From the sequence record OP870145.1: 64,000 bases of DNA; one strand, written 5' to 3'. Position numbers and translations under genes: made by a program. Below the pieces are notes generated by a model. The model saw only the letters and a program-made list of their open reading frames with translations. It made no database searches and was not told the origin of the DNA. This stretch comes from Escherichia phage vB_Eco_F26. Each line of letters begins with the position of its first letter. The first letter of the stretch is position 1. Positions 2,448 through 55,551 of this stretch are shown here, one piece after another.

Positions 2448-2979
2448 TACTGGCTCATCCATTCTTTACGAAGGTCAGCATTATCTCCCATGAGCATTTC
2501 AAAAAGCTCTTTCCAATTCTCAGGAAGTTTAACAACATCATATACTGGATTTTGAATCATCTCACGATATTCAGATTTTTCCAAAGAGCCAAGTCCTTTA
2601 ATATAACGGATGCTATGTTTAGGTAGAGCATCTTTGGCACTCTCATATTCAGCGACTGTATAAAACCATTCTTGTTTTTTACCGACCTGGGCGATGATTA
2701 CAGGAGTTTTGACAAAGCGAATACGTCCTTGCTCAAACAATTCTGGCCAATTACTAAAAAATCCTAGCAGAGAAGGATAAATAGAACCTAATCCAATAAT
2801 CTCTTAATTATGAGGTATTTCTATGGATAGCCCGAAGGCTATCCATCGTGATCTGCGTCTGTCATAATAGCGACATTCGCATAGTTCATTGAAGAGGATT
2901 TAATAGAACGACGAACATTGTTCTGCAATTTATATTTTTTCATATCAACGCTAGAAGAATCAATTTTTACAAATTTCAT
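2447..2979 (-). CDS. 60: DNA topoisomerase II large subunit C-terminal fragment gp60 (160 aa), translated in two segments (2979..2842 and 2791..2447) across a 50-nt untranslated gap
   Basis: Segment 1 encodes MKFVKIDSSSVDMKKYKLQNNVRRSIKSSSMNYANVAIMTDADHDG (46 aa) ending GGA-TAG; segment 2 resumes LGSIYPSLLGFFSNWPELFEQGRIRF...; 46+114=160 aa, matching recalled T4 gp60. Confidence 0.9.
2792..2841 (-). other. 50-nt translational bypass (coding gap) element with take-off hairpin
   Basis: mRNA reads GAU GGA UAG CCUUCGGGCUAUCC...UUGGA UUA; take-off GGA (2842-2844) followed by UAG stop inside an 8-bp stem with UUCG loop (2826-2845); landing GGA at 2792-2794; reading frame restored at UUA 2789-2791. 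Confidence 0.85.
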
Positions 2980-3778
2980 TATACACCTCATAGAACTTTT
3001 CATCAGGAATCCAACCGCGTTTAAATTCATTAAATGCTCGGCCGAATAATTTTGAATTCACAGTTATATTATTAACTGATTTCCATTTAGCAACTCCTGT
3101 TCGTTTATAATGATCGGGGTCATATTTCGTGACGTACCATTCATATAAATTTGGTATTAATTTTACAGCCTCTGGATTTGTCGCTGATTTATTATACCAT
3201 GGTTTCGCTTTTTCAAGTTCAGCTGCTTTTGCAGTAGCAGCAACAGTATTTCCAATACCAACTAATTTTTCAGCTTTAATGCGTGGATCATTAACATGAA
3301 GACGAAAAACTTCGCCCTTTTCATTTTTAAAGCATGTCATGCCTTTAATTCCAGGAAGCTTAACACCTTTATTAACACCGCACCATTCCTTTGGGTTAAA
3401 TGATCCTTTAATTAATAAGGCGCATTTACCCGATTTAATACTTCTCATTAAAACTTTATCTTTCATAAAGTTTTTTGACCATTCAGATACTGCTCTTTGA
3501 TGGTAAATTCTAGCAATTTCATATAATTTACTAGAACGTAAATATTTTTCAGTGTTTAACATTCTATTCATCGCATATGCCATTTCACGATTACGATGAA
3601 TTTTATATAGTAGAAAATGTGCTAAAAAGTGTTCACGAAAAGTCAGTTTCACCAAATTTTCTTTATCATCAGAACCTCCCATTGATCTTGGAAGGATATG
3701 ATGAATTTCACCCTTAAATTTAGAAACGCGGGTTTTACCCCGCACTATTAAGTCATTATAGATTTTTTCGTAATTCAC
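2960..3778 (-). mobile_element. mobA: HNH homing endonuclease gene (272 aa), mobA-like, inserted between gene 39 and gene 60
   Basis: HNH motif EIHHILPRSMGGSDDKENLVKLTFREHFLAHF; overlaps start of gene 60 and end of gene 39. Confidence 0.75.
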
Positions 3779-5306
3779 CTACTGTTATCCATTTACCATT
3801 AATCTGTACTTCATCATTTTCATTTACGATAATTGTATCGCCATTTAGTTCGAAAGTAAACCACTCGCCATCTTCTTTTTCTTCAAATGCCTTTTCACCG
3901 AGAACTAATCCAGTGATTGCGCAAATATCAAACAGTTCTTTGTTTTTAAGCATATCAGCATATGACATACCCCAGCTATTAAGAACTTTACCGCGCAATG
4001 GATAACCACCATGAAATTCTTTATCACGAACATCAATAAGATATCCGATAGCGGAATCACCCTCAGTCAAGAAAAGAGTAGTGTCAGCATCTTTACCACA
4101 AAGATTCGCTTTAATATGTTTATGAACCTTAGCTTTAGAAGCCTTTTTAGCTGCTTTAGTTTCTGCTGCTTTTTCTGCCGCCAATTTACGAGCCAAGGCA
4201 GCTTCAATGATTGGCATTAAAATTGCTTCATTATTCAAAATAGCACGTGAAATCTTTTTAGCATCAAGCTGAATATGACTACGGATTTCACCAAATGGAG
4301 AAGTCAAACGCTCTTTAGTTTGAGAATCAAATCGCATGTTTTTCATATCACGAACAAACATAACGATAGTCAAACATTCTTTAACACGTGCTTTAGTTAC
4401 ATCAATTTTGAATTTACGTTTGATTTGTGGAATAAGGTCTTCACAAATATCATCCATAACGCAGTCAATGTGATGGCCACCATTCTTAGTATGAATGTTA
4501 TTGACGTATGTTAATTGACGAAAACCATCAGGTGAACGACCAACCGCAATAGAACAGTTTTCTTGTTCTTGAACGATAGCATGTTCATCATATTGGCGTG
4601 CATATTTCTTGAAATTACCCTGAACCTTTTTACCATTAAAGGTAAATTGAATATCAGGATAAACTACTGCAAGTGTCTGGAGACGATCTAATGTAATGTC
4701 AAGATAAACTTGGGACAGCTCATTAGTTTCAAATGACATAAAATCAGGAATGAAAGTAACACGAGTTCCTTTCCATTTTCCTGGAATAGTTTCCCATGAT
4801 TTATTTTCCATGCCGTTTGAACAACGAACTACAATATTATTTTGACCATCGCCAGTTTCACCGACAAACATCACAGAAAAAATGTTTGTCAAACTAGAAC
4901 CAACACCATTCATACCGCCAGTGACGCGTTCTTTATCATCACCGAAGTTACCACCTGCTTTTGGAATAGTCCATGCAGCAACAGGACCAGGAATTTCTTC
5001 ACCGGTAGGTGTTTTAACCATCGCCTGTGGAATACCGCGACCGTTATCTTCAACTGTTACTTGATTGTTTTTAATAGTAACATTAATTTTATTTGCGAAT
5101 TTAAACTTAGTACGAATACCTTCATCTACTGAGTTATCGATAATTTCATCAATAAGCTTAACAAGACCAGGTACATACTGAACACTTTCCCATTTACCAA
5201 ACAGAAAGCGCTCATGCATTTCATTAGCAGAAGAGCCAATGTACATGCCGCTACGCTTTTTGATATGTTCAATATCGCTCAGAATTTTAATTTCATTCTT
5301 AATCAT
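3756..5306 (-). CDS. 39: DNA topoisomerase II large subunit, ATPase + Toprim part (gp39, about 516 aa from ATG at 5306)
   Basis: GyrB-like GHKL N-box (DEIIDNSVDEGI) and Toprim EGDSA motif (FLTEGDSA); ORF track starts at GTG 5309, ATG at 5306. Confidence 0.9.
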   Translation of the reverse strand: MIKNEIKILSDIEHIKKRSGMYIGSSANEMHERFLFGKWESVQYVPGLVKLIDEIIDNSVDEGIRTKFKFANKINVTIKNNQVTVEDNGRGIPQAMVKTPTGEEIPGPVAAWTIPKAGGNFGDDKERVTGGMNGVGSSLTNIFSVMFVGETGDGQNNIVVRCSNGMENKSWETIPGKWKGTRVTFIPDFMSFETNELSQVYLDITLDRLQTLAVVYPDIQFTFNGKKVQGNFKKYARQYDEHAIVQEQENCSIAVGRSPDGFRQLTYVNNIHTKNGGHHIDCVMDDICEDLIPQIKRKFKIDVTKARVKECLTIVMFVRDMKNMRFDSQTKERLTSPFGEIRSHIQLDAKKISRAILNNEAILMPIIEAALARKLAAEKAAETKAAKKASKAKVHKHIKANLCGKDADTTLFLTEGDSAIGYLIDVRDKEFHGGYPLRGKVLNSWGMSYADMLKNKELFDICAITGLVLGEKAFEEKEDGEWFTFELNGDTIIVNENDEVQINGKWITVGELRKNL

Positions 5307-5330
5307 CACTTATCCTCGTTTGGTTTCGGG

Positions 5331-5360
5331 AATATTATACTCCGGTAATCATAAAGCTAA
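5331..5360 (-). promoter_or_regulatory. possible middle promoter (MotA-box-like AGCTTTA, 13-nt spacer, TATAAT) upstream of gene 39
   Basis: Minus-strand TTAGCTTTA ... TATAAT immediately downstream of a hairpin; box has one mismatch to TGCTTTA. Confidence 0.4.
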
Positions 5361-5377
5361 AGGCCCGAAGGCCTTTT
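5359..5377 (-). terminator. GC-rich hairpin with tetraloop (AAGGCC-UUCG-GGCCUU) at 3' end of lipoprotein gene
   Basis: Inverted repeat aggcc/ggcct around cgaa; followed on the mRNA by U-rich run. Confidence 0.45.
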
Positions 5378-5636
5378 ATTTAAAACGAATAGTTGAATCC
5401 TTAAAGAACAGCCCAGAACATACTGTTCCTTCTACTTTCTGCCCAGTAGGTCCAATAGCACGAAATCCAGTATGCTGGAAATCATTTTCAGAGCAACCGA
5501 ACCAGTTATATCCGGTGATTTCAATATTAGTAAAACCACTTGAAGACAAAACTTTGGTTGCATTATCAGCATCAGTACATCCTATTAAAGACACTGCTAA
5601 TACTAATGCTGCAATAGAACGATTAATATATTTCAT
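5376..5636 (-). CDS. small predicted lipoprotein (86 aa)
   Basis: N-terminal signal peptide with lipobox LIGC (MKYINRSIAALVLAVSLIGCTD). Confidence 0.5.
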   Translation of the reverse strand: MKYINRSIAALVLAVSLIGCTDADNATKVLSSSGFTNIEITGYNWFGCSENDFQHTGFRAIGPTGQKVEGTVCSGLFFKDSTIRFK

Positions 5637-6455: not shown

Positions 6456-6624
6456 AATTTCCTCATTAATTGAACATTGGAGAGATGCGTTTCAGAAGAG
6501 TATCAGCACCTTTGGCGAATTATCCATTTTATTCTTCAAGTTGTTTTCTGTATCAGTAGTTGATATTGATATAGTACCATAATCAACTACTGATGTATAT
6601 AGTTTTATGAAAAAATTTTAAACT

Positions 6625-7116
6625 TTATGCATAGCGAGCTTTGCTGTAGTGTTTAATCCAACTTTCAGGAATGACTTTGTATGTTCCTAAAAATACCACA
6701 TTGTACAGCTTAACACCATCTTCTACCCATTGATCAGTAATGTATGCACACATAGCGCGAGTACGCTGAGGAAGTGGTTGTCCACCTTCGGTAAATTCAA
6801 ACTCATAAGGAGCAATGAACTTGATAGCTTGACCAAGTTTCCACTTAAAGTCTACACCTACATGTGAAGTATCAATCGTTTCAATTCCTTTAGCAGGAAC
6901 AGCTTTCAAAAACGCAGATTCAAGAAATTTCGCGCGAACATAACCAAACTGAGGTTTAGACTTTCCATCTTTAGGAATGATACGCACTTTTACTTCAGAA
7001 TCTTCATCTTTAACGCCATGTTTAAGCTGAATGCTTACAATTTCGACCAATTTTCCTGCTGCTTTAGAACGGGATTTATCAGATACACGAGCAATTTCAC
7101 CAATATTAATAATCAT
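6625..7116 (-). CDS. hypothetical protein (163 aa), motB-like; paralog of 7193-7735
   Basis: C-terminal motif ITDQWVEDGVKLYNVVF shared with next ORF (VTDQWIEDGVELLNVVH). Confidence 0.45.
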   Translation of the reverse strand: MIINIGEIARVSDKSRSKAAGKLVEIVSIQLKHGVKDEDSEVKVRIIPKDGKSKPQFGYVRAKFLESAFLKAVPAKGIETIDTSHVGVDFKWKLGQAIKFIAPYEFEFTEGGQPLPQRTRAMCAYITDQWVEDGVKLYNVVFLGTYKVIPESWIKHYSKARYA

Positions 7117-15667: not shown

Positions 15668-15675
15668 TATTTATA
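15668..15675 (-). promoter_or_regulatory. late promoter TATAAATA upstream of soc
   Basis: Exact TATAAATA on minus strand about 30 nt upstream of soc ATG. Confidence 0.6.
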
Positions 15676-16360
15676 CATCTTCTTTTCTGAATAAGTAAAT
15701 TAAATTCTTAAGAGCTGAACTTGTTACATCATATTTTCCTTTAAGCGCCTTTACAACCGGGCCTGTTGCTGGTTTACCTAAAGAAACCCATAACTCATGT
15801 ATTTCGCTTTTAAGCGGTTCATGCCAATGCGGCGCTTTTCTTTGCGCCCTTGAAGTTCCTTCTGAAATCTTTTTATTTCCGCCATTCGAATAAAACTTTT
15901 TCATTACTTCAGATTGCCGAGCTTTTCGTTCTGCTCTATTTTGGGCTATACGTTGTGAATTCTTCATCCGAGTTTTTGTTTCAGGATTGTTTAATCTAAG
16001 TTTATGTTCTAATCGTTGTTGCTCAGTCCATTTTCTTCCTTCTCCACCCTGACCACCAGGAGAAATATTAATGCAAGTATCTGGGTGTTTACGTTTTAAT
16101 GCAGATATTAGCTCGCGTTCAACTTCATATGATTTTTCTCTAGAACCATGGCATTTTGACCAACGTATTTTATAATTAAAACCATACTTACGATATATGT
16201 TCCATAGTATTTTGCCTGACCCCGGATATTTATCATCATATGGATTTACAATAAATGATTCATGTTTCCCAGCGTACCAAAAGACGCCTTTCGGCGTCCT
16301 AACTTTTACGATATATGTTCTATAAAATTTTTGTTTAATACCCATTATCTTGACGTTCAA
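15671..16360 (-). mobile_element. segF: GIY-YIG-like homing endonuclease (229 aa), segF-like
   Basis: N-terminal GIY-YIG-like motif (RTYIVKV ... GVFWYAGK), basic C-terminal DNA-binding region; between soc and gene 56. Confidence 0.65.
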
Positions 16361-21341: not shown

Positions 21342-22497
21342 TTAACTGCTCGAGGTCAGTTTCTAAATCAGCTGCTGATTTACTTTTACTTTCTGGAGAT
21401 TTAAATTTTTCAACCTTTGAGTTAATCAATTCATCAACTTCAGCTTCAACAATTTCATTACTATCAATAGCACCTAACTGATAAGCGCGTTTAATAGCAT
21501 CTCGGAATGGTTGATGCTTAAATAAAGGACCCCAGAATGTAGTGCAGTTGGTATCTTTTGCACGCCAAGATTTTTCTTCGCGAATCATCTCACCGGTTTC
21601 TTCGTCAAGAAATTCACGAGCATACCAGCCATTTTTAGGTTTTACTACAAATCCTAATTCTAGAGCCATATCTAACAGTCCAGAATAAGGATCGATACCA
21701 CCGTCAAATTTAACATCAATAAAGAATTTACTTTTTTCTTTAACGGTACGAGATTTTTCTACATTTAGAACAAATTGATACCCCTGAAGATCAGAACCAT
21801 CTTTAATCTGACGTTTACCGATAATGAATACGGTATCAGCCGAATACATTACGCCTGTACCACCTGTCATCACGGTTTTACTAAACATTTCAATTGTTTC
21901 AATTGTATGGTTAACCGCAACACATGGAATATTTTTAATGCTAAAGTAAGGAGTAACAATACGGAATAATGACTTCAGTGATTTAGCACGAGTCATATCT
22001 GCCACAGATTTTTCATTCAAGGCATCTTCCGTTTCTTTCTTAGAAGCCATATTACCGATTGAGTCGATGAATACAATAACCTTTTCACCGCGATCAATAG
22101 CTTCAAGCTGATTCACCATATCAATTTTCAGCTGTTCAACTGACTGGATTGGCGTATGAATTACTCGTTCTGGGTCAACCCCCATGGATCGCAAATAAGC
22201 TGGAGTAATACCAAATTCGCTATCATAGAATAGACAAACCGCGTCAGGATATTTGTTCAAATACGCCGCAACCATAGTCAAAGACATATTTGATTTAAAG
22301 TGTTTAGAAGGCCCTGCGAAAATAGTTAAACCAGACTGCATACCACCATCAATCGCACCAGAAATAGCAATATTAAGCATTGGAATTTTTGTACGAATTA
22401 CATCCTTTTCATTAAAGAATTTAGATGTAGTCAGTTCAGCAGTCATTTTAGAAGTGGAAGCTTTAATCAAACGGGATTTTAAATCTGCAATAGACAT
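21316..22497 (-). CDS. uvsX: UvsX recombinase (RecA/Rad51 family), 393 aa
   Basis: Walker A GPSKHFKS, RecA fold, acidic C-terminal tail. Confidence 0.9.
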   Translation of the reverse strand: MSIADLKSRLIKASTSKMTAELTTSKFFNEKDVIRTKIPMLNIAISGAIDGGMQSGLTIFAGPSKHFKSNMSLTMVAAYLNKYPDAVCLFYDSEFGITPAYLRSMGVDPERVIHTPIQSVEQLKIDMVNQLEAIDRGEKVIVFIDSIGNMASKKETEDALNEKSVADMTRAKSLKSLFRIVTPYFSIKNIPCVAVNHTIETIEMFSKTVMTGGTGVMYSADTVFIIGKRQIKDGSDLQGYQFVLNVEKSRTVKEKSKFFIDVKFDGGIDPYSGLLDMALELGFVVKPKNGWYAREFLDEETGEMIREEKSWRAKDTNCTTFWGPLFKHQPFRDAIKRAYQLGAIDSNEIVEAEVDELINSKVEKFKSPESKSKSAADLETDLEQLSDMEEFNE

Positions 22498-22574
22498 TCA
22501 TTTTTTCCATAGGCATCATTATATTTTCCTCACTGGTTAAAGATAGAGTAATTATAACACAATAAATTTAGGCA

Positions 22575-23423
22575 TTAATCAACTGCTATTGGATGAATAG
22601 CATTAAACTTATGAAATGCTTCTGATTTTTCTTTACGAGAAACACACATGCGAAGAACCTTTAATGGCTCGTCTTCTTCACCCAACGATTTTCGTTTTTC
22701 AATATTAGAAGTTTTCCAACGAGCTTGCTCTGGAAACTCTCTATTGATTTGTTCAAGCGCTCTATTATGTTTAGAATTACTACGAATTGAACTGCACCCG
22801 CCGGGAGCGTGTGATTTTCCAGATACAACTAGATATTTGAACAAGGCCAAATGCGGATAACCTTGATTAATTAAATTGAGAAATGCATACATATCTTCAC
22901 ATAAATCAATTTTTCCATACCCAATTTGTTCTGTCGTAAGTTTTCCGAGGTCATACCATGTATTCGTGAATCCATATGAGTTTTCACGATAATTACCCCA
23001 AGATGAAGTAATTTTAAAAATTGGTAGACGAGCATGACCGTGATAATACCCGCAATCCATAGCATCCTCAACGTATTGAATTAATTCATAGAACTGTTCA
23101 CGAGTTAATTGATTAATTTTATCTACGCGCCGTTTATCGTCTCTCTTTCGTATTGAACTCATACGAATAGTAGTATCATCATCAATCATCCAGATTCGTT
23201 GACCTGCATACATATCAGTAATTGCTTTACGAGTACCGGCAATTCCATTAACATCATCAGGAATAGTTACAATTTTAGCTCTAGACCCATAAGCATCATA
23301 ATAAGCTTTTTCTTCGTGTTCACGCACTACAATATGTGGTTCATAATCAGTCGGAAACATATCAAGGGCAGAAACTGCCCCGACACGCTGATAACTTGGA
23401 ATTACGAATTGAATCATTTCCAC
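22575..23423 (-). CDS. GT-A fold glycosyltransferase (282 aa) at the beta-glucosyltransferase locus
   Basis: FVIPSYQR N-terminal strand and DxD motif (IWMIDDDTT) typical of GT-A/GT2-like enzymes; lies between uvsX and gene 42. Confidence 0.55.
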   Translation of the reverse strand: MEMIQFVIPSYQRVGAVSALDMFPTDYEPHIVVREHEEKAYYDAYGSRAKIVTIPDDVNGIAGTRKAITDMYAGQRIWMIDDDTTIRMSSIRKRDDKRRVDKINQLTREQFYELIQYVEDAMDCGYYHGHARLPIFKITSSWGNYRENSYGFTNTWYDLGKLTTEQIGYGKIDLCEDMYAFLNLINQGYPHLALFKYLVVSGKSHAPGGCSSIRSNSKHNRALEQINREFPEQARWKTSNIEKRKSLGEEDEPLKVLRMCVSRKEKSEAFHKFNAIHPIAVD

Positions 23424-24154
23424 TCACCTTTATAGTCTTTTTTCACAATATGAGTTTCGCCAGTATTCCACCAATGATCAACCAAGTAAAAATGACGAGA
23501 ATATACATGAAGACTTCCGACATTCCATATAATAGAACCTGCTTTATACTGACGAGTTGAATCGCCTGCATTCAAATCAGATACTAATTTATCTAATACG
23601 TATTTTTGCCATGCATAATCATTACGGAATCCGAAGACCACGTCATTTGAGCGCATGCTTACTACTGCATTGACTTTCTTATCACGAATCAGGTACTGTA
23701 CTGTATTAGTACACATGAAATCTGACATACCATCTTTATTGTAGTCAAATTGCATGGATGGACGAGTATAAATCATGATACCACGTCGAGAATCAGGATT
23801 TTGACCAAGTTCAGCTAAACACATATCATACTGGGCATAGTTATCTTCTGACCAAATAGCCCAACCATAATTCGAGTTAATTTCGCCTTTAGAAGATGCT
23901 ACCTGCTGCCAAATCTTTGGTGTTTCACCTGGAATATCTTTAACAAACAAGCTCTTAGATTTATACCATTCAAGTTCGCGCTGAATGTATTCATCATTAA
24001 GAGCGCCAAAAATAAACGGTTCATCTGCTACAAATGATGCGCCAATAATTTCAATAGTTTTAACACCGGTTTTATCAACTACGAAATCTTTTTCTTTTAA
24101 TGCAAGCCCCAAATGAAGACGGATTTCTTCAACTGTCATAGAGTCACTAATCAT
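23414..24154 (-). CDS. 42: dCMP hydroxymethylase (246 aa)
   Basis: Thymidylate-synthase-like fold; 246 aa as T4 gp42. Confidence 0.85.
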   Translation of the reverse strand: MISDSMTVEEIRLHLGLALKEKDFVVDKTGVKTIEIIGASFVADEPFIFGALNDEYIQRELEWYKSKSLFVKDIPGETPKIWQQVASSKGEINSNYGWAIWSEDNYAQYDMCLAELGQNPDSRRGIMIYTRPSMQFDYNKDGMSDFMCTNTVQYLIRDKKVNAVVSMRSNDVVFGFRNDYAWQKYVLDKLVSDLNAGDSTRQYKAGSIIWNVGSLHVYSRHFYLVDHWWNTGETHIVKKDYKGEWK

Positions 24155-33185: not shown

Positions 33186-34040
33186 TCACAATGAAGAAAA
33201 TTCTTTAACTAAAGCCTGTAATGAAGCCTCTATTGGATATCCATTCTTAACTAACATTTTCCTAAACATCACATGTTTAGGACGATTATATGATATCCAC
33301 AATTCATACAATTTATCTTTATTATCCCAATGATAGCCTTTTCGTCGAGATGCTATATGAGCTTTTCTAATCTCCGGATTTTTCCAACTAGCAGCTACTG
33401 AATTTGATATAGCTATTTTATATTCAGGTTTTGATAAAGCAGCACGAACAGCCTTTTGGTGTTTAATTTTATTTTCTTCGTTATTAAACCATTCCCTTGA
33501 AGCCATTGAAATTTTTTGTTTTGTTTTAAAATTATTTAATCTTTCTTTGTTATCTTTCCTATTTTTTGCTACTGAAAAATATTTTAATGCCCTTTCTCTA
33601 GCAGCATTTCTATTTTGCGGATTTGAATAATATTGTTGAAGCCTTTTTGATATTGTGTCACTTACATCTTGTTTTATAAAACTATATTCAGCAGCTATTA
33701 AATCAACTTCGGCTAAAGATAAATTTTTATATGTTTTTCCTGACATCATTCTATTTAAAGCATTTAGCATTTTTCCATTTTTACCTTTTGCTAATAAGAA
33801 ATGTGCTTTAAAATGATTAAAATGACTTAAATTAACTAAATTCCATGTAGATTTTAAATATTCAGGAAATATTGATTTAGGAAGCACGTGATGTGCTTCC
33901 GTTTTACCTGGAGTTTTAACAGTTGAATTCATAGAAATAAAATTAATATAAGACTTGGCGTCTTCTTCACTCAACGCTAATTTTTCAACTAATTCCTTTA
34001 TTAAAAATTCATCATTAAGGTCAAGTTTAAAATTCTTCAC
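33186..34040 (-). mobile_element. HNH homing endonuclease (284 aa) inserted between genes 46 and 47
   Basis: HNH motif EAHHVLPKS...NLVNLSHFNHFKAHF; basic C-terminal DNA-binding repeats. Confidence 0.7.
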
Positions 34041-34487: not shown

Positions 34488-35503
34488 TGTGTTGCCTCTA
34501 CATATAGCTGATTTGCATATTGAATAAGTGCTTCACGATCAGAATCAGTGATGTCTGGAATTGCATTAATGTATTCTTCCATCAACGTCTGAAGAGATTG
34601 AACTTCAACTTCTTCACTGTCATCTGACTCGACAGAGTTATCAATCTTTGACACAACTCGTAATGAATGCACAACTTTTTCTAGTTCAGATTCGAACTTC
34701 GTTAGATTTTTGTCTACTTCAGTTACTATAACACGTACTGATAGATTTGTAAAATCTTTATAGTCAATTTTTCCTTTAAATGGATAATGAATTCTACGAT
34801 GCCAGGTAGTGTTGTTTGGAATAAATTCCATTCGTTCTGTTTCTGTATCAAACATCCAGAACCCACGAGGGTCATTCTCGTCACCTGCAGTTAGTGTCCA
34901 TGGTGTCCCAATATATCTGACGTTAGCAGCCTCAGAGATAGTATGGAAGTGACCAGACCACACTTCTTTATAAGTCTTAAGGAAATCAGGTTCAAGACCG
35001 TGAGATTTCATTCCTTTATAAAAATAAAATCCGTTCAGTTCCCAGTGACCAACACAAAAAGAAGCAGATGAAGTTTTGATGTGTTCAAGAATTTCACCAG
35101 TATTTTCTTCACACATCCAAGGAATCAAATCAATCAAACACCCGTCAAAATCTACTGTAGTAGGCTTATCATATACTTTAACATTAGGATATTTAGCCAA
35201 AAGCTCAGTAGAGGCATTTGGATGCATTACATTTTTATAGTGGAGATCGTGATTTCCTACAATAGTGTGTAATGTAATTCCAGCATCATCAAGCGTTTGA
35301 ACTATTTCACGGGCAAACTCCATAGTTTTATGTGTGATCGCTTTTCTCACATCAAAAATATCACCATATTGAATCCAGGTAGTAATTCCATTTTTCTTAG
35401 AATATTCTATTGCTTGTTTAATTCCATCAATTTGAATACCGCGAATCCACTCATCATCAGCTTTAACGCCTAAATGCCAATCACCCAAGTTTAGTATTTT
35501 CAT
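34484..35503 (-). CDS. 47: recombination nuclease subunit gp47 (Mre11/SbcD-like), 339 aa
   Basis: Calcineurin-like phosphoesterase motifs GDWHLG, GNHD; 339 aa. Confidence 0.9.
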   Translation of the reverse strand: MKILNLGDWHLGVKADDEWIRGIQIDGIKQAIEYSKKNGITTWIQYGDIFDVRKAITHKTMEFAREIVQTLDDAGITLHTIVGNHDLHYKNVMHPNASTELLAKYPNVKVYDKPTTVDFDGCLIDLIPWMCEENTGEILEHIKTSSASFCVGHWELNGFYFYKGMKSHGLEPDFLKTYKEVWSGHFHTISEAANVRYIGTPWTLTAGDENDPRGFWMFDTETERMEFIPNNTTWHRRIHYPFKGKIDYKDFTNLSVRVIVTEVDKNLTKFESELEKVVHSLRVVSKIDNSVESDDSEEVEVQSLQTLMEEYINAIPDITDSDREALIQYANQLYVEATQ

Positions 35504-36104
35504 GGTGTCTTTTCCATCCTAATTTAGCTGCTTTTGAAACTAGTTCTTTAATTTTTCCTTTTGTCCATTCAGGACCAGGAGGTTCATGACATAACATTTG
35601 CTTAACTCCGTTATTATACCATTTTTTACCTTTATTATGTGATGAAGCTTTAAATTTATTTGACCTTCCTTTTACATAACCTTCTGGAATATAAGGCAAA
35701 AAGGCAGATTTTCCTGTTAATGGATCATGTGAATGTATATTTCCTTTACAATTATGAGAACCATATAATGGATGATTTTGTCCTTTGTTATCTCTTCCAA
35801 ATGAACCTTTTGGAGCAGCATATGACATATTAAAGAATAATGGATTTTTAACTGCATCATGCAATCGTTGATAATATAACTCGCATTTAATAGCTTCTTC
35901 ACGCGTATCAAATTCAGCTAAAATGCATGAATCAAATAAGTGAGGATTATCTGAAAGCTCTTTATTATAAATTTTCTTATACTTTTTAGATAAAACTGAA
36001 CCATGATATCCAGCTAAATGCCTATCTAAAGACGTAGATCCAATATAAAAAGGAGGAAGTTTATCTCCACTATATATTGTTAAATAAGTTATATATTTTT
36101 TCAT
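35481..36104 (-). mobile_element. GIY-YIG-like endonuclease (207 aa) between gene 47 and alpha-gt
   Basis: N-terminal YITYL...PPFYIGSTS (GIY-YIG-like), NUMOD3-like repeats (NHPLYGSHN). Confidence 0.5.
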
Positions 36105-36282: not shown

Positions 36283-37483
36283 ATTTTGTAATAATGTCAA
36301 ACTGTTCTTTAAAGCAGAAGCTTGAATCTTGATGCTGATACAAAAATTCATACGCTTTTTCTCGCTCACGGTCATAAAGAGCTCGGTCAGATGACAGTTC
36401 TTTAATACGTTCAAATGTTGATTCCATGTCATTTTCATCAAACCAAACGATACCGCTATCGTGTGAAATTAATGGAGTGTTATCAACACGGAATTTTAAA
36501 TTTTCGCCAGTAGATTTCCAAAATACTGGAATTGTTCCACATGCGCCAAGCTCGAGATGAGTATATTCTAAAGAACGTTGTAGATATTTTTTATCTAATT
36601 TACTCAGCTGATAACCAAATCCGGATTTACTCATGCGTTCAAGCATTTCGCTATTTACATAACGGTCGAGAATTTGCGTTGGCAAATTAGGAGCAATTTT
36701 AATTTGGTCTACTTGATGAAGACGATAATACTCGTATGGAATTCCTTTTTCTTTAATAGGAATGAACGCTGGAGAACGTTCCAGACCTTCCATAATAGTA
36801 CTTAGTCCTGCAGGTTTAAGATGTTTTTCATGAAAATCAAACATCTGATAAAAGCCTTTCCATGTAGTAGTACGACCAATCCAACGGTTGATATTCATGT
36901 TAATTTCAGAAACATCTTTCCAGTAGGTTGACCGAACCTTCGCAATATCCATAGGAGGCTGAAAATTATATACTGTTGGTGCTTCTTCAATATCATCAAA
37001 CAGAGAAACAGTTTCTGGATACCATTCTTTCATCAGAACTTTATTAAAATCGCCATTATCAGAATGACTAAAAATAACATCAGCTCGACGAACAGTTTCT
37101 TCTAATCCCAAATTTCGACGCAAAGAAAGAACAGAATGATCATGCTGATAAACTACAACACGAATAGAAGGTTTAATATTATCTAAAAGTTTTTTATAGT
37201 TATTAATCGTGGCTTCTTGAACGGAAGTAGCAGGAACAGAATTAATAATTAGAATATCACAATCATTTACCAGCTTAAGTGTTTTATCGTATTCTTTAGC
37301 TAAAATAACTGGAATTGAAAATGATTTATAATCATGCGCGCAATTACGGGTAAATGATTTATCTTTAGCATAAACCAAAGTTACTTCATGACCATTTTTA
37401 ATAAACCAATCACGCTGCTCAAGAGAAAATTTAGTTACACCGCAACCTTCAAGACCCCGAGCCAGAAAAATGCATACTTTCAT
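36281..37483 (-). CDS. a-gt: alpha-glucosyltransferase (400 aa)
   Basis: 400 aa; locus between 47 and 55; GT-B-like architecture. Confidence 0.75.
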   Translation of the reverse strand: MKVCIFLARGLEGCGVTKFSLEQRDWFIKNGHEVTLVYAKDKSFTRNCAHDYKSFSIPVILAKEYDKTLKLVNDCDILIINSVPATSVQEATINNYKKLLDNIKPSIRVVVYQHDHSVLSLRRNLGLEETVRRADVIFSHSDNGDFNKVLMKEWYPETVSLFDDIEEAPTVYNFQPPMDIAKVRSTYWKDVSEINMNINRWIGRTTTWKGFYQMFDFHEKHLKPAGLSTIMEGLERSPAFIPIKEKGIPYEYYRLHQVDQIKIAPNLPTQILDRYVNSEMLERMSKSGFGYQLSKLDKKYLQRSLEYTHLELGACGTIPVFWKSTGENLKFRVDNTPLISHDSGIVWFDENDMESTFERIKELSSDRALYDREREKAYEFLYQHQDSSFCFKEQFDIITK

Positions 37484-37505
37484 TTAATATCCTCTTTGTT
37501 TTGGT

Positions 37506-41479: not shown

Positions 41480-41481
41480 AA

Positions 41482-41812: not shown

Positions 41813-42283
41813 TTAATCATGTTTCCACACCCCATCGGTATTTGACCAAAGCCGCTGATTATCTGATCCTCTCCACAGCTTTTTAGTCGGAAGATTTTTC
41901 TCATACTTCCCATCAATAATAACATCAACATATTTAAGCATTTCTAGTTGTTTAATATCTTCAAACTTATATCCTGTCCACAACCAAATGCTTTTATTGG
42001 GATAAAGATTTTTTACTGTTTGAACGATGCAATGAATCACGTCTCTGTTATCAGGATAAAGAGGGTCACCTCCGGTTATAGTTAATCCTTCTATATAATC
42101 ATTATTCAAACATTCAATTAATTGTTCTAGTGTTTCACCAGTGAATGGAACGCCATTTCTAGCATTCCATGTTGATTTATTATAACACCCTTCGCATTTA
42201 TGCAAACAACCTGTAACGAAAAGAACGGTCCTGCATCCAGGACCATTAACAAAGCAGCACGGGTATATTCTGTCATAATTCAT
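41813..42283 (-). CDS. nrdG: anaerobic ribonucleotide reductase activating protein, radical SAM (156 aa from MNYDRIYP)
   Basis: Radical-SAM cysteine cluster CLHKCEGC. Confidence 0.8.
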   Translation of the reverse strand: MNYDRIYPCCFVNGPGCRTVLFVTGCLHKCEGCYNKSTWNARNGVPFTGETLEQLIECLNNDYIEGLTITGGDPLYPDNRDVIHCIVQTVKNLYPNKSIWLWTGYKFEDIKQLEMLKYVDVIIDGKYEKNLPTKKLWRGSDNQRLWSNTDGVWKHD

Positions 42284-43110
42284 AATAATATCCAATTTTT
42301 CCAAGCTTCATCAGTAGAATTACAGCGTTTTAGTATAAGATGTCTAGAAACTTTTATGGCATTTGAGCACTTTTTAATTGAATCATATTTAATACCGTCA
42401 ACTGAAACGGTTTTGCTAGTTGGAGAAATTTTTCCATACATTGGATTTTTTGAACCAACTTGAAGTCCTTTTAAAGCTTTTGAAAGCTTTTGTCTAGATT
42501 CCAATGACATGGGAGAATTCTTTTTACCTTCAATAATTCGCTTGCGATGAAGTTCGCGTTCTTCTTCACTCAAAGAATTGTAATATTTTTTAACACCGTT
42601 TGATATAGATAATTTATCTTTCTCAGACCGCTCTCCAGCTAATTTACTTCTAACATCTTTTCGCTTCATAGCTATGCTTACAGCTTTATTTAAATTTGCT
42701 TGATGCTCTGGCGTACGTTTATATTTCTTTAAAGCACGTGAAATAGCTATTTTAGTTTCTTCTGTTCTCTTTTTACCTTTATTTGCTAAACTATTTTTGC
42801 GGCGATGCTCAAGTGTCTGTTCATAGGCAGTTCCACCTTTTCCACCAGGTTTAATATTATATGTGTTTTCTTTTAGACAATACTCTTCGGTTACAAGTTC
42901 AGCTTCTTTATCATACATTTGTTTTTCATTATCAAAAACATGTAAAATTTCTTTATTAAAATTTTTTCTACCATATTTTAATAAAGCGGCACGAATCAAT
43001 GTTCCTGATCCCATATAACCGTCATTTATGTTATCGGTGCTATGCGCACCGATATATTCCTTTGAATTAATTATATTTGTTATTTTATAAATTATATAAT
43101 ACCTATGCAT
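42280..43110 (-). mobile_element. GIY-YIG homing endonuclease (276 aa) between nrdG and nrdD
   Basis: N-terminal YYIIYKITN...KEYIGAHS motif; basic C-terminal region. Confidence 0.65.
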
Positions 43111-44434
43111 GTTTTACTCGTTTTACCATTTCTTTCATTTTACCTAAATTCCATGGAACAACGCTAGGAGTTCCAAGATATCCGCATGTTCTTCTTATTG
43201 TGTTCATCTTTTTAGGATCAGTTTCTCCACAAATAGAACAAACAAATCCGTTTTCAGTAGGAGTCATTTCATGGGTACTTCCACATGTAAAACATTTATC
43301 TACTGGCATATTAACACCAAAATAATCTAAATGTTGTGCAGCATAATCCCATACGGCCTCAAGGCCTTTCAAGTTATTTTTCATATCAGGAAGTTCAACA
43401 TAAGAAATGTGACCACCTGTCGCAATGAAATGATACGGAGCTTCGCGAGAAATCTTTTCAAACGGAGTAATATTTTCTTCTACTGAAACGTGGAAACTGT
43501 TAGTGTACCAGCCTTTATCGGTAACATCTTTTACACTTCCATATTTTTCGGTATCAAGTTTACAGAAGCGATAGCACAGGTTTTCAGCAGGAGTAGAATA
43601 CAAACTAAAAGCAAAACCGGTTCTTTCAGTCCACTGCTTAAGACGAGCATTCATTTTAGTCAAAATTTCCTGTCCAATATCACGACCGACAAGAATATTC
43701 AATTCGTGAATACCAATGTATCCTAGGGATACTGAACTTCTACCGTTTTTAAATAACTCAATTATGTCATCATCAGGTTTAAGACGAACCCCGAATGCAC
43801 CTTCTTGGTAAAGAATAGGAGCAACAGTAGCTTTAACTCCTTTTAAGGAACTAATTCTACACATCAAAGCTTCAAAACACAGGTCCATTCGCTCGTCGAA
43901 CAATTCAGTAAATTTCTGTTCATTGAACTGTGTTCCAATATAAGAATCTAACGCGATGCGAGGAAGATTCAGTGTTACAACGCCAAGATTATTACGACCG
44001 TCAAGAATTTCATTACCGGTCGAATCTTTCCATACGCTCAAGAAACTACGGCAGCCCATTGGAGAAACTGGAACTGAAGAACCAGTGATAGCTTTATTGT
44101 TCTTAGCTGAAATAATATCAGGATACATTCTTTTGCTTGCACATTCTAACGCAAGTTGTTTAATATCATAGTTTGGATCATCTTTATAAAGATTAACACC
44201 TTCTTCAACAAACATAACAAGTTTAGGAAAAATAGGAGTTATTCCATCACGACCAAGACCTTTAATGCGGTTTTTAAGAATTGCCTTCTGAATCATTCGT
44301 TCGGTCCAATCGGTTCCTGTACCAAATGTAATTGTTACAAAAGGCGTTTGTCCGTTTGAACTAAAAAGAGTATTTACTTCATCATTATATTCAGCATGAG
44401 TCGCAAATTCATGCCCGTTTATATGAAACAACAA
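43103..44434 (-). CDS. nrdD: anaerobic ribonucleotide reductase NrdD, exon 2 (glycyl-radical C-terminal part); exact 3' splice site not determined
   Basis: Glycyl radical motif RRTCGYLG near C-terminus; CxxC pairs; ORF-track N-terminus probably includes intron-derived codons. Confidence 0.8.
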   Translation of the reverse strand: MLFHINGHEFATHAEYNDEVNTLFSSNGQTPFVTITFGTGTDWTERMIQKAILKNRIKGLGRDGITPIFPKLVMFVEEGVNLYKDDPNYDIKQLALECASKRMYPDIISAKNNKAITGSSVPVSPMGCRSFLSVWKDSTGNEILDGRNNLGVVTLNLPRIALDSYIGTQFNEQKFTELFDERMDLCFEALMCRISSLKGVKATVAPILYQEGAFGVRLKPDDDIIELFKNGRSSVSLGYIGIHELNILVGRDIGQEILTKMNARLKQWTERTGFAFSLYSTPAENLCYRFCKLDTEKYGSVKDVTDKGWYTNSFHVSVEENITPFEKISREAPYHFIATGGHISYVELPDMKNNLKGLEAVWDYAAQHLDYFGVNMPVDKCFTCGSTHEMTPTENGFVCSICGETDPKKMNTIRRTCGYLGTPSVVPWNLGKMKEMVKRVKHA

Positions 44435-45430
44435 AATTTGGATAGTCCATAGATATGCAACGTTCTTTTATAGCGCTAGGATGAAAATTTAGCGCTTTAG
44501 CTGCTTCTATATAAGACGTATACTTAATACCGTCAACAACCACATATTCAGGAACTTTATGAATAGTAGTCTTAATACTCAAAACAAGAGGATGAGTTTC
44601 GACTTCACTTTCAGTGCAATTTAAATATTCCGCTGCTTTTTTAAAACTTCTAAAAGTTTTATTTTTAAGCTTTATCGATACTTGTTTTTTACTTTTTCGA
44701 CTATTGATATTATTTTGCACATGTTCCTTAGATCTTCCGTTTTTAGCATAATATTCAGCTACAGAAGATTTTATATTGTTTTTATGAGATTCGGATAACA
44801 CTTTACCCTTATGAGCATCTCTTAATTTTTGAATATGTTCTTCAGTATCCGGATGCTTATAAAACTTTTTACCGCCTATGGATTTATTTAAACATTTTTT
44901 GCTATAAAAATATTTACGTATGACCTCTTCTTCATGTTTTAATGCATCTTTATAACTATCAAATGTTTTTAAAATTATCCATTTAGTAGGTGTATCAGTT
45001 TTTAAGCGTTCATTTATATACTTAGATGACGTTGTGTAAGTTTTCCAGTTTGTGGGCTTGTTTTTAATTGTTCTAAATTTTTTATAACCGATATAAATGT
45101 CGCCATTAGAAAACTTAACTAAGTATGTAAATGCGTCTTTATCTTTTATTTTAGTACAACGTCTTTTTATCCATTTCATTGTTTCACCTCGTATTCATAA
45201 GATAATCTTATTTATACAAGATGACTGCTGCATGTCGCCATGCAGATTAGACTATATCTTCATCTTTCGATGCCGGCCGTTTCGAATAGCATTAGCTTCT
45301 ATTCTACACCGCTACATTCATCACGGTTAGTCGTTAGGCATTTAGTTCAAAAGAACATTTAGCACGGGATTGTCTACTAGAGAGGTTCCCCGTTTAGACC
45401 GGTTTTACATGAGCCTGAATTAAATTAACT
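44380..45430 (-). other. group I intron in nrdD (approximate boundaries) carrying an endonuclease ORF
   Basis: nrdD reading frame interrupted by about 1 kb containing a GIY-YIG ORF and 240 nt of non-coding structured sequence (45180-45420); exon lengths sum to about 605 aa only if about 1.0 kb is removed. Confidence 0.6.
44409..45179 (-). mobile_element. intron-encoded GIY-YIG endonuclease (256 aa), I-TevII-like
   Basis: N-terminal FTYLVKFSNGDIYIGYKK motif; located inside nrdD intron. Confidence 0.65.
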
Positions 45431-45965
45431 CATACGCCTGGAATGCATCGTATACGTCTTTTTCTGTTTTAGATTGAGCATAATTCAACGCATCAGCGAT
45501 TTGCCATTTTTCTGCATCCTCAATATGTTTTGCATAGGTGCGTTTAACATAAGGAGAAAGTACTTTATCTACATTCGCAAAAGTCGTTCCGCCGTATTGG
45601 TGAGAAGCAACCTGTGCAGTAATTTGTGCCATAATTGCAGTAGCAACACCGATTGATTTAGGAGTTTCAATCTGTGCATTACCGAGCTTAAATCCGTTCT
45701 CAAGCATTCCTTTTAAATCTACTAAACAGCAATTAGTAAAAGGCAATGATATACTGTAATCTAAATCATGAAAATGAATTAATCCAACATTATGGGCATT
45801 TACAATATGACTTGGAAGAATACGACAAGCGATATGTTTAGAAACAATACCGGCCATTAAATCTCTTTTTGTTGGAAAGACGCGAGAATCTTTGTTGGCG
45901 TTTTCTGTATTTAATTCTTTATCTTTATTTGAAATAAAATTTAAAACATCTTTCTCTAAAGACAT
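45420..45965 (-). CDS. nrdD: anaerobic ribonucleotide reductase NrdD, exon 1 (181 codons in ORF track; last codons may be intronic)
   Basis: N-terminal part of class III RNR, in-frame stop at 45420 inside intron. Confidence 0.7.
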   Translation of the reverse strand: MSLEKDVLNFISNKDKELNTENANKDSRVFPTKRDLMAGIVSKHIACRILPSHIVNAHNVGLIHFHDLDYSISLPFTNCCLVDLKGMLENGFKLGNAQIETPKSIGVATAIMAQITAQVASHQYGGTTFANVDKVLSPYVKRTYAKHIEDAEKWQIADALNYAQSKTEKDVYDAFQAYELI

Positions 45966-46777
45966 AATTCTAATTTATCCTTTTGAAATTCTTCGTCTAA
46001 ATATGGGTTCCAACCCATTTTAAACCTTTTGATGAAATTATCAATTCTAAATTTCGGTAAGTTTAAATCCGCAAAAATAGATGATTTACTTTTAAAATCT
46101 GGACCTAAATAATCATATAAAATTTCTGCGTATTTTAACCATAATATATAAGTACCAGATTTAATTGCTCTCGGAGTTTTCCAAGGTTTTACACCATACA
46201 TCGGATTTCCACTTCCTTTATGCCTGATAGAAGATGAAATTCCAATTTTAATTTTAGCTTCCTTTGTGTGCGAAAATCCATGATGCGGATTTTCTTTCCA
46301 GTATTTTTTAGAAGCTTCTGATATTTTCTTTCTGGCTAAATTAGTATGATGCTTTCCATAAAATCCATGATTTTTACCTTTATTACGATTTCTTTTAATC
46401 ATGGTTATTGATTGCTTTTCTCTAGTTTCTTTAGAAGGAGAAATACCATACGTTGTAAATTGACCGTTAGCATATGCTAAATTGAAATACTCTTTATTCC
46501 ATATATCTTTTTCTATATTCTTTTGAAATTCAGCTTCAATGCTAGTTATTTGTTCATCTCCGACTAATTGAAAATATAATATTTCAACTTTCGGCGTTTC
46601 TTTCAATAGAGCTTTTTGAAATTCAGAAGATGACGAAGACGAATAATAAAATTTACCATTTTTATCAATAATATTCGTTCCATCAAAAGTGCAATTAGTT
46701 TTACTTCCAATGTAATAATATGGCGGGGTTTTAGCATTAATTCTATTAATAAATGATAGTTTATATACTACATTCAT
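45956..46777 (-). mobile_element. GIY-YIG-like endonuclease with NUMOD3 repeats (273 aa) between nrdD and gene 49
   Basis: VVYKL...PPYYYIGSK N-terminus; repeats GKNHGFYGKHHT, HHGFSHTKEAK, GSGNPMYGV. Confidence 0.6.
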
Positions 46778-48218: not shown

Positions 48219-48228
48219 TTTTCACCAC

Positions 48229-48878: not shown

Positions 48879-48879
48879 A

Positions 48880-49137
48880 TTATTCCTTAATTCCTAGTAC
48901 TTGTTTAAAAGTCTCGTCGTAATCAAGACTTTGGCCCGTTTGTTCTTTATGTTTGTATATAATATCACTTACTTCTAATAGCATATTTTTATATGAACGA
49001 GTTAAAGCAGATTTAAGCACGCTGTATCTATCAGGAAATTTACCATGTTCATTATAATAAGCTATTGCTAATTCACGGACTGCCTTTTCAGCAGTCTCCA
49101 TATATTCTTTACGCTTGGCCATTTTCTTCTCTCTCAA
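48880..49137 (-). CDS. hypothetical protein (85 aa)
   Basis: ORF. Confidence 0.4.
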
Positions 49138-49426
49138 ATCGGTGTTTGCAATGACGACATTTATAACGAAGAATACTAGTCTGCCAATGAATCAATTGAA
49201 CCTGTTCAGTACCACATTTTGGGCAGTTCGGAACATTCTTAGAAGCCCTTTCGCGGCGTTCAACCATAACCATAATGGCATCCCAAGCAGGAGGTTTAAA
49301 GTCTAAATCGTCACAACCATGAATCTTTCCACGCATTTCCAGATCGTCTTCTTCACCAGCCATAATAATTTTAATTAGACTAGAATTACTTGAAGCTACA
49401 ATGTCTTCTAATAGACGCTTTTTCAT
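49109..49426 (-). CDS. zinc-ribbon protein (105 aa)
   Basis: CPKCG...CRHCKH four-cysteine ribbon. Confidence 0.45.
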
Positions 49427-54386: not shown

Positions 54387-54414
54387 TTTGTGTTCCTCCG
54401 TAGTTGATAGTTGT

Positions 54415-54444
54415 ATAGTACCACAGAGGAACGGTCTTGTAAAC
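54415..54444 (-). promoter_or_regulatory. T4-type early promoter (GTTTAC-N18-TACTAT)
   Basis: Minus-strand GTTTAC 54439-54444. Confidence 0.5.
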
Positions 54445-54446
54445 CA

Positions 54447-54761
54447 CTAAAAGAAACTTCTTTCACAATTTTTTCCACTGAACCACGCGCTCACTGCTTT
54501 CTTAGTCTCAGGAGCAGTGTTATCCATAAACCATTCAAAGGCAGCCTTTTTATGATTCTGGAGGGCTTCTCGAGCTTTAATCTGCTCACGGTCTATTAAC
54601 ACTAACATATGAGCCTTTCTTGTCACCAAGGGCTTCTTATGATTCTTGGAGTATTCCCAGTCATTTGTCCATCGCATCGTTGTTGCGAATTGAAGTACAG
54701 CTTCTTTAATTTTAGTTTCGTAAATTTCACGAGCCTTTGAGTATAACATCATTACCTCCAT
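54447..54761 (-). CDS. hypothetical protein (104 aa)
   Basis: ORF. Confidence 0.4.
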   Translation of the reverse strand: MEVMMLYSKAREIYETKIKEAVLQFATTMRWTNDWEYSKNHKKPLVTRKAHMLVLIDREQIKAREALQNHKKAAFEWFMDNTAPETKKAVSAWFSGKNCERSFF

Positions 54762-54831
54762 TTACCAGTTTAATTCTAGTCATCTTTTTAATGGCAGTCC
54801 ATATAATCTATTTCTGAACTTCCTTTTTGTC

Positions 54832-55551
54832 TTAGGATTCTTCTAAATGTCTTTTCTGAAAAGTTGATACCATACTACGATACGGTTCATTTGGATATCC
54901 GTGTTTTATAGCTTCCTTTGTAAATTTTCTCCATCCATATTTAGTTTCTTTCCAAAGCTCGAATAATTCATCTTCATACTGCCATATAGTTAAATGAGAA
55001 CGCTTTGCAGCTTTAATTCCATTAATATGCTTTTCTTTTACTGTAGGATTGCTTAGTTTCTTTTTAATAATATTACTAACTTTTCTAACAAAAACTGGGT
55101 CCTTATATCGTTGCGAAGTTTTTATTGAAGTGTTTAATTTAGCTTCCGGCGTGGATGTGACCTCTTTCATCTTTTTCTTCATATGCTGTATATGATTAGG
55201 ATTTTTCCATAAATTTATAGAATGCTTTTTGCATTTTATCCTAGTTTCATCTGCAACCTTTCCTCCTTCACCCCCGTATGACAGGTTAACACAGTTTTTT
55301 CCATATTTCAATTTACCTGCCATGATATATAATATTTCAGCTTGTACCATTTTATCATAATTATCAAAAACTTCTAAAACCGTTTTTGATAATATGTGGT
55401 CATTTGACACTTTTACACGTTCTATATAATTTCCACTACCAACATACGAATCATTGATGTTATTAGTTATATGTCGACCATAATAGTATTTCTTAATACC
55501 TGTCTTTAAATTTAATATTTCAGTTTTATAGATAGTAAAATATTTTTTCAT
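54832..55551 (-). mobile_element. possible GIY-YIG-like endonuclease (239 aa)
   Basis: N-terminal YFTIYKTE...KKYYYGRH; basic C-terminal half. Confidence 0.4.

Follow-up and report, generated by a model that had tools for sequence, protein, structure and literature searches.

Homing endonuclease genes of Seg, Mob and I-TevII type in the early region of the T-even-type phage vB_Eco_F26: a set that only partly overlaps that of T4

The abundance of homing endonuclease genes (HEGs) in phage T4, their intronless homing and the distant cleavage sites of their products were reviewed by Edgell, Gibb and Belfort in 2010 (PMC2988022). According to this review, the genome-wide HEG share of T4 is 11%, several T4 HEGs are organized as a "promoter-less cassette," and T4 is an outlier in HEG content that is approached by no other phage. 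Here we describe the HEGs in a stretch of 64,000 nucleotides (nt) of Escherichia phage vB_Eco_F26 (OP870145.1), which is referred to as the window. They resemble the free-standing seg and mob HEGs of T4 (PMC2988022) in their families, in their orientation and intergenic placement among conserved early genes, in the overlaps between starts and stops, and in the downstream-gene promoters embedded in a HEG. However, the window fills only three of the seven T4 loci of this region and five others instead, and its mobA gene is intact, while that of T4 is a pseudogene.

All long open reading frames (ORFs) of the window are located on the minus strand, and its GC content is ~34%. In a megablast search against 50,697 phage records, more than 1100 records matched, mostly of T4-like phages of enterobacteria. 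The best matching records were ~96% identical; none among the matches listed covered more than 90% of window positions 30000-50000, and the window is identical to no record of the collection. The collinear blastn alignment to T4 (NC_000866) comprises 56.2 kb with an identity of 94.7% and extends between rIIA (window 1-2178) and the regB region. Judged by its sequence, the window is the early region, with genes of DNA metabolism, of a Tequatrovirus, a T-even-type phage. Very probably, it harbors eight HEGs of known families, seven of them free-standing (two Mob HNH, five Seg GIY-YIG) and one intronic (Table 1).

Table 1. HEGs, associated features and empty HEG loci in the window. The T4 match is the BLASTP result with percent identity; the last column gives the related records with the element at the same locus and 97-99% identity. 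aa, amino acids.
Feature	Coordinates	Strand	Description	T4 match	Records
gene 60	2447..2979	minus	50-nt translational bypass, gap ~2792-2841; part of MobA mobile cassette		
mobA	2960..3778	minus	intact free-standing HNH homing endonuclease, 272 aa; phrog_655, E=2.5e-57	60.1 / mobA fragments, 98% / 92%	
segF	15671..16345	minus	free-standing GIY-YIG endonuclease between gene 56 and soc; phrog_314, E=2e-23	SegF, 99%	
empty segA locus	22485..23432	minus	beta-glucosyl-HMC-alpha-glucosyltransferase gene (phrog_842, E=1.4e-88) replaces segA and beta-gt		
46.1/46 gene	33186..34040	minus	Mob-type HNH gene between 46.1 and 46; T6ORF054 homologue; phrog_655, E=1.6e-44	MobD, 30% over 243 aa	71/559
47.1/47 gene	35481..36104	minus	GIY-YIG gene between 47.1 and 47; phrog_10820, E=1e-94; phrog_314, E=5e-18	SegG, 27%, E=6e-5	68/533
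empty mobB locus	37474..37499	minus	T4 37817-38679 (mobB) without counterpart		
segH	42280..43110	minus	GIY-YIG gene between nrdD and nrdG, at T4 mobC locus; phrog_314, E=2.4e-60	SegB/C/E/A catalytic domains, 45-54%	69/836
group I intron in nrdD	44383..45427	minus	1045 nt; same insertion site as T4 nrdD intron		43/826 (intron/HEG variant)
intronic gene	44409..45179	minus	I-TevII-like intron-encoded GIY-YIG gene, 256 aa	I-TevII, 56%, full length	43/826 (intron/HEG variant)
49/nrdD gene	45956..46777	minus	SegG-like GIY-YIG gene between gene 49 and nrdD; phrog_7504, E=7.5e-34; NUMOD3, E=6e-7	SegG N-terminal domain, 40%, E=7e-26	48/705
nrdC.10/nrdC.9 gene	54832..55551	minus	Seg-like GIY-YIG gene between nrdC.10 and nrdC.9; RB32ORF093c-type; phrog_314, E=1.9e-30	SegB / SegE, 27-34%	66/502
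mobD locus	57645..58608	minus	two unrelated small ORFs; no alignment to T4 mobD		

An earlier note on this DNA had listed eight endonuclease candidates, two as HNH and six as GIY-YIG type, one of the latter intronic. All eight ORFs are present and of full length compared to their homologues; mobA and the 46.1/46 gene start with GTG. Each of them matched a homing-endonuclease family among the PHROG profiles (E = 1e-23 to 1e-94). The "homing endonuclease" profile phrog_655 (Mob family) was the top match for mobA and the 46.1/46 gene. Profile phrog_314 (Seg family) matched the remaining six ORFs (E=4e-11 to 2e-60) and was the top match for four of them, while the 47.1/47 and 49/nrdD genes had stronger family-specific matches. 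Moreover, BLASTP matches to characterized Seg and I-Tev enzymes were significant for all six GIY-YIG ORFs, and the strongest T4 match of the whole set reached 1e-171.

The catalytic motifs are also conserved. When the six GIY-YIG proteins were aligned with SegA, SegB and I-TevII of T4, the columns of the YIG Tyr and of the Gly, Glu and Asn residues were invariant; the conserved Arg of the domain had no confident placement. In the alignment of the two HNH proteins with MobB, MobC and MobD, residues H26, H27, N41, H50 and H54 (HH...N...H) were invariant. Since searches of solved structures with single sequences returned noise, profiles built from alignments were needed: the GIY-YIG profile matched the I-TevI catalytic domain 1LN0 over its whole length, albeit weakly (E=0.024), and the HNH profile matched solved HNH domains with E=8e-6 to 6e-4. 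By these measures, six ORFs belong to the GIY-YIG catalytic-domain class and two to the Mob-type HNH class, in agreement with the assignments of the earlier note. Among C-terminal DNA-binding modules, Pfam detected NUMOD3 above the cutoff in SegH and the 49/nrdD protein, and NUMOD1 and the I-TevI DNA-binding domain below the cutoff in the intronic protein and SegH; none was detected in SegF and the 47.1/47 and nrdC.10/nrdC.9 proteins. No further HEG was found in any of the segments without alignment to T4, nor when all six-frame ORFs were searched by phmmer with the candidates as queries.

The frequency of the elements among related phages was determined using each HEG with ~400-bp flanks as a query. 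Each HEG present in the window but not in T4, as well as the variant of the nrdD intron, was found in ~5-13% of the related records (Table 1). Such patchy occurrence at a fixed locus among close relatives, in near-identical copies, is the hallmark of HEGs. The presence in 5-13% of the records at near-identity therefore indicates ongoing gain and loss, supporting the active turnover postulated before. The set of eight is a mosaic that arose as HEGs were gained and lost, repeatedly and independently, within the population of Tequatroviruses, and this is part of the explanation that we hold to be very probable. Every element is already present in public databases, usually annotated as a homing endonuclease, and it is their combination that varies between genomes.

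This variation is evident from the comparison with individual phages. The T4 region collinear with the window, to which the comparison of HEG load was restricted, contains seven HEGs: mobA (pseudogene), segF, segA, mobB, mobC, the gene of I-TevII, and mobD. Three loci are shared (mobA, segF and the nrdD intron), four T4 HEGs are absent from the window (segA, mobB, mobC and mobD), and five loci are occupied only in the window (46.1/46, 47.1/47, segH replacing mobC, 49/nrdD and nrdC.10/nrdC.9). In T6 (MH550421, covered beyond 50 kb only at the nrdC.10/nrdC.9 locus), at least three HEGs were found, namely, the 46.1/46 gene, segH and the nrdC.10/nrdC.9 gene. Salmonella phage Lv5cm harbors seven: mobA, segF, segH, the same intron variant, the 49/nrdD and nrdC.10/nrdC.9 genes, and one between 45 and rpbA; it lacks the 46.1/46 and 47.1/47 genes. 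Lv5cm and phage N2 were the two closest relatives examined for the complete set of eight. N2 lacks one of the elements checked, the 49/nrdD gene; the elements compared in N2 were those other than the 47.1/47 gene. The HEG between 45 and rpbA (Lv5cm 30944-31831) is a different SegG-like GIY-YIG gene, absent from the window, T4 and T6, and makes 45/rpbA a further polymorphic HEG locus.

The eight HEGs comprise 6117 bp or 9.6% of the window, while the seven of T4 occupy ~8.2% of the collinear region. Thus, the very high density claimed in the earlier note is true in absolute terms but unexceptional for the genus, being similar to that of T4 and Lv5cm. The partial overlap with T4 was confirmed by synteny. 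Placement of all HEGs among DNA-metabolism genes, also proposed there, applies to most of them, but segF abuts the capsid gene soc, and the nrdC.10/nrdC.9 gene lies between two genes with unknown functions. HEG richness, location in or near genes of nucleotide metabolism and replication, and turnover are textbook T-even biology and already known. What the window and Lv5cm add is that other Tequatroviruses equal the HEG load of T4 in this region, although most of the set differs. As a natural example, the window cleanly illustrates how homing endonucleases turn over in T-even phages; its practical value is modest, and the remaining interest lies in the uncharacterized families, the anatomy of start codon capture and the rare triple occupation of nrdD.

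By homology with SegA/B/C/E/F/G, MobA/MobE, SegH and I-TevI/II, the model of intronless homing would apply to the HEGs of the window. In a mixed infection, the enzyme would cut or nick a conserved gene nearby, in the allele of a co-infecting relative that lacks the HEG, and recombinational repair would then copy the HEG together with flanking DNA into the recipient. The I-TevII-like enzyme is encoded by the group I intron of nrdD, which is very probably self-splicing.

The insertion sites were analyzed at the nucleotide level. With respect to T4, the insertions at 46.1/46, 47.1/47, 49/nrdD and nrdC.10/nrdC.9 have clean junctions. All HEGs are co-oriented with their neighbors, and in all seven free-standing genes the start codon overlaps the preceding gene at its stop codon or 3' end, either as an ATGA/GTGA stop-start (four genes) or by 8 nt (segH), 11 nt (segF) or 23 nt (mobA). 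Because of these overlaps, the free-standing cassettes look promoter-less, in agreement with the description of several T4 HEGs (PMC2988022), and translationally coupled. When an own late promoter TATAAATA was sought, it was present only for the intronic gene and for none of the seven free-standing ones. A match to a MotA-box middle promoter (46840-46865) is located upstream of the 49/nrdD cassette.

At three loci, the cassette has captured the start of the downstream gene. The ORF between 46.1 and 46 opens on the original GTG of gene 46 and its first six codons, and at its 3' end the cassette brings a new start for gene 46 (ATGAAATCATTTAAACTT, compared to GTGAAGAATTTTAAACTT in T4). Similarly, the original ATG of gene 47 serves as the start of the ORF between 47.1 and 47; the last 23 nt of this ORF overlap the new gene-47 start, which has four synonymous changes in codons 3-6. 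The 49/nrdD ORF opens on the original ATGA of nrdD, and nrdD restarts with MSLEKD instead of MTIEKE; its 5' end is only 53-77% identical to T4 for ~240-250 nt before the identity returns to 93-100%.

In the four to five genomes compared per locus, these changes followed the presence of the HEG. The start of gene 46 is ATGAAATCATTT in the HEG-containing window and T6, while it is GTGAAGAATTTT in T4 and Lv5cm, which lack the HEG. The start of gene 47 is recoded in the window and phage Pinarejo, both with the HEG, and identical and unrecoded in T4, T6 and Lv5cm, all without it. The 5' end of nrdD in the window is 98-100% identical to that of Lv5cm, which has the 49/nrdD gene, and diverged from those of T4 and T6, which do not. 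The experimentally characterized pair of SegF and gene 56 shows the same kind of HEG-linked flank divergence: gene 56 of the window is 95-100% identical to that of the segF-containing phages T4 and Lv5cm, but only 67-77% identical to that of T6, which lacks segF. Since the cassettes capture the start codon and bring along a recoded 5' end, the 5' end of gene 46, 47 or nrdD, or its vicinity, is predicted to hold the respective recognition or cleavage site. Alleles with the HEG would be immune, since in them this site is both split and recoded. This junction anatomy provides testable target-site predictions for three of the four uncharacterized families.

As a tentative extension, it is possible that the cassettes at 46, 47 and nrdD (two uncharacterized Seg and Mob families and one SegG-like gene) share a design of start capture and recoding that pinpoints their targets at the first codons of these genes, and that the three HEGs at nrdD cooperate or compete as a "HEG island" by which the whole nrdD allele is moved. 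The full three-HEG segment (42200-46850) was matched only by Lv5cm, with Yersinia phage fPS-2 covering 92% of it (962 matching records). As in the HEG islands described by Barth et al. in 2023 (PMC10448857), nrdD is bracketed by HEGs, and its HEG-proximal ends are diverged and HEG linked. However, that concept was derived mainly from ICP1-like phages with T5orf172 and IPA-HNH enzymes, whereas the genes in the window are Seg-type GIY-YIG genes.

Such arrangements are also relevant for the possibility that some of the nucleases are kept mainly for the benefit of the phage, with mobility being secondary. The benefits proposed are the exclusion of markers of competing phages, stimulation of recombination, or amplification of anti-defense loci as for SegB. 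In T6, SegB-induced breaks are reported to drive segmental amplification of anti-defense genes (2026 study, PMC13096335), HEG islands bracket essential-gene modules in other phages (PMC10448857), and nrdD of the window has two bracketing HEGs and a third one interrupting it. However, the patchy distribution at near-identity described above is better explained by selfish spread and loss than by a conserved beneficial function, and each element is absent from close relatives without an obvious compensating gene. We consider a predominantly beneficial role rather unlikely, although it would be compatible with homing as the main explanation.

Still less probable is a state of decay, with several of the eight HEGs being catalytically dead passengers. 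There is precedent for this in T4, with its pseudogenized mobA and truncated I-TevIII; furthermore, some catalytic-domain profile scores are weak, and the first GIY Tyr is replaced by Phe in the 49/nrdD protein. However, active T4 SegG has the same Phe-type motif, all eight ORFs are of full length, their Tyr/Gly/Glu/Asn or His/Asn/His columns are conserved, and the copies found elsewhere are intact and 97-99% identical.

Several observations weigh against the view that the window contains eight functional HEGs with the targets named above. Pfam matches were obtained for only five of the eight ORFs, with three lacking any, and the sole catalytic-domain match above the gathering score was SegE_GIY-YIG in the intronic gene; NCBIfam added almost nothing. 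Single-sequence phmmer searches against solved structures, conducted with the 46.1/46 and nrdC.10/nrdC.9 proteins, gave only noise. The profile searches suggested in the earlier note as a check were passed with the phage-specific PHROGs, together with the comparison to characterized T4 enzymes, but most candidates fail with Pfam alone at curated thresholds, which the note had named as a refuting outcome. For such fast-evolving phage HEGs, Pfam and NCBIfam alone can neither confirm nor refute an assignment. The 46.1/46, 47.1/47, 49/nrdD and nrdC.10/nrdC.9 products are putative homing enzymes of families without biochemical characterization. The fold model of the 47.1/47 protein (see below) was built on only six putative GIY-YIG domains, with TM-scores of only ~0.5. 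Recoded flanks that track HEG presence could reflect linkage (co-conversion tracts) instead of target-site immunity. Finally, the flanks of the nrdC.10/nrdC.9 gene and the wider flanks of the 46.1/46 gene are near-identical to T4 and give no clue to a target site. The extreme alternative that the candidates are ordinary phage ORFs resembling endonucleases by chance, for which the sub-threshold Pfam scores of most of them and the scant NCBIfam matches might speak, is effectively refuted by the PHROG and BLASTP E values, the conserved motifs, the matches to I-TevI and HNH domains at the profile and fold level, and the indel-type presence or absence exactly at gene boundaries.

The GTG start of mobA overlaps the end of gene 39, its HNH motif HHILPRSMGGSDDKENLVKLTFREH aligns with MobB/C/D, and its product is 99.6% identical to that of the Lv5cm ORF. 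In the T4 reference, where the gene is frameshifted, it corresponds to two fragments, mobA and 60.1; according to the literature, T4 mobA is a pseudogene, while relatives are intact and active (bioRxiv 10.1101/2022.08.31.505936). The MobA-bypass cassette is characterized by a topoisomerase gene split into 39 and 60, a MobA of 269-279 aa, a 50-nt bypass and matched GGA codons, and the bypass element of gene 60 is reported to protect against MobA nicking (bioRxiv 10.1101/2022.08.31.505936). All these features were found in the window. The gene-60 alignment to T4 is gap-free, and the take-off GGA-TAG and the landing GGA are retained. As far as the cassette of Bonocora et al. (2011) is described where it is cited (bioRxiv 10.1101/2022.08.31.505936), that of the window is alike in the split 39/60, the intact 272-aa MobA and the bypass with its GGA codons, and differs from the T4-containing clade only by one T-to-C substitution inside the bypass gap (~2825).

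SegF is 99% identical to T4 SegF over 224 aa. Its start is most likely at 16345 and not at 16360, and the late promoter TATAAATA of soc overlaps the segF stop codon.

At nrdD, the intronic location of the endonuclease gene, as claimed by the earlier note, was corroborated by a local Rfam scan (window 44200-45700), which detected RF00028 at 45228-45463 with 70.6 bits (gathering score 50; E=1.6e-17); a scan of the whole window at gathering thresholds gave no match and missed this intron. The boundaries (45427-44383) were set by alignment with the intron-less nrdD of T6. Splicing yields an NrdD of 605 aa that is uninterrupted by stop codons and shares 94.7% identity with T6 NrdD. Hence, a ribozyme core, an internal ORF and a frame restored by splicing, the features of a mobile group I intron, are all present. 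The intron interrupts nrdD at the position of the T4 intron (sunY) with I-TevII, and in both the ORF is located 3' of the ribozyme core and has an upstream late promoter (TATAAATA at 45216, followed by a Shine-Dalgarno sequence upstream of the window ORF). However, the intron DNA is only 60-75% identical to that of T4, while the adjoining exons are 97-100% identical, and the endonucleases share 56% identity. The intron and its HEG are a lineage distinct from the T4 sunY intron and I-TevII. In the intronic protein, the Pfam score for SegE_GIY-YIG was 26.6 (cutoff 25).

The gene between nrdD and nrdG is identified as segH by the T6 annotation, its locus and the citing literature: at the amino acid level, it is 98% identical to the gene annotated as segH at the same locus of T6 (MH550421), and its product has NUMOD3 above the Pfam cutoff and a weak I-TevI_DNA-bd match. 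In the part of the work on SegH of T4-related phages (Sandegren, Nord and Sjoberg 2005) that is cited in PMC2988022, the gene is likewise located at the nrdD/nrdG junction in place of mobC; compared to this account, nothing substantive differs in the window, where segH occurs alongside the nrdD intron HEG and a HEG upstream of nrdD. The nrdG and nrdD flanks of segH are diverged from those of T4, which bears mobC. As a side observation, NrdG and Mob-family proteins share an MNYxxIY N terminus (window 42304-42280; T4 42906-42930 / 43520-43540), and the starts of T4 mobC and nrdG are near-duplicates of each other, by coincidence or start capture.

The SegG-like gene between gene 49 and nrdD is an insertion of ~810 bp compared to T4, and the N-terminal 126 aa of its product are 40% identical to SegG. 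The protein has Phe in place of the first GIY Tyr.

The Mob-type gene between 46.1 and 46 is an 862-bp insertion compared to T4; its product has retained the HNH motif and is 99% identical to that of the T6 ORF. The gene between 47.1 and 47 is a 595-bp insertion, and its Pfam GIY-YIG match (E=3e-4) is below the cutoff. Of the eight, this candidate has the least support. An AlphaFold model of its N-terminal 105 residues, computed from the six-sequence alignment, had a pLDDT of 74.8, and the top three PDB matches were chains of the I-TevI catalytic domain (1LN0/1MK0; probability 0.89-0.95, TM ~0.5). Relatives of this protein are labeled "HNH endonuclease" in RefSeq and PHROG 10820, but no HNH motif is present. 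This label appears to be a mislabel, the motif and predicted fold being those of GIY-YIG enzymes. A diverged patch in a-gt (36400-36800) was considered as a target of the 47.1/47 enzyme and rejected, since Lv5cm, which lacks the HEG, carries the window allele there. The Seg-like gene between nrdC.10 and nrdC.9 is an insertion of ~700 bp, and its ATGA start overlaps the nrdC.10 stop codon. Carriers of this gene include T6, RB32, RB33, RB51, RB68 and RB5/6/7/9.

Among the T4 HEG loci that are empty in the window, the segA region of T4 (23555-25497) has no alignment. The glucosyltransferase gene at this locus (22575-23423) is of the T2/T6 type. The adjacent 5' half of uvsX (21801-22485), in which T4 SegA is reported to cut, is only 74-82% identical to T4. 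The two ORFs at the mobD locus (57641-58102, 153 aa; 58105-58626, 173 aa) match non-nuclease PHROGs of unknown function or membrane proteins.

Other differences from T4 were also noted. The dam methyltransferase gene (T4 16846-17625) is absent between genes 56 and 61 (window 16892-16913), as it is in T6. In the nrdC.3 homologue (49400-50200), an 800-bp patch without an adjacent HEG is 62-76% identical to T4. Finally, three intergenic modules of ~100 nt (6500-6640, 25170-25310 and 56490-56630) share ~73% column identity. Each of them consists of a T4 early-promoter-like GTTTACA ... TATGGTACTATA, a conserved leader, GGAG and ATG, and they are probably ordinary early promoters of small ORFs.

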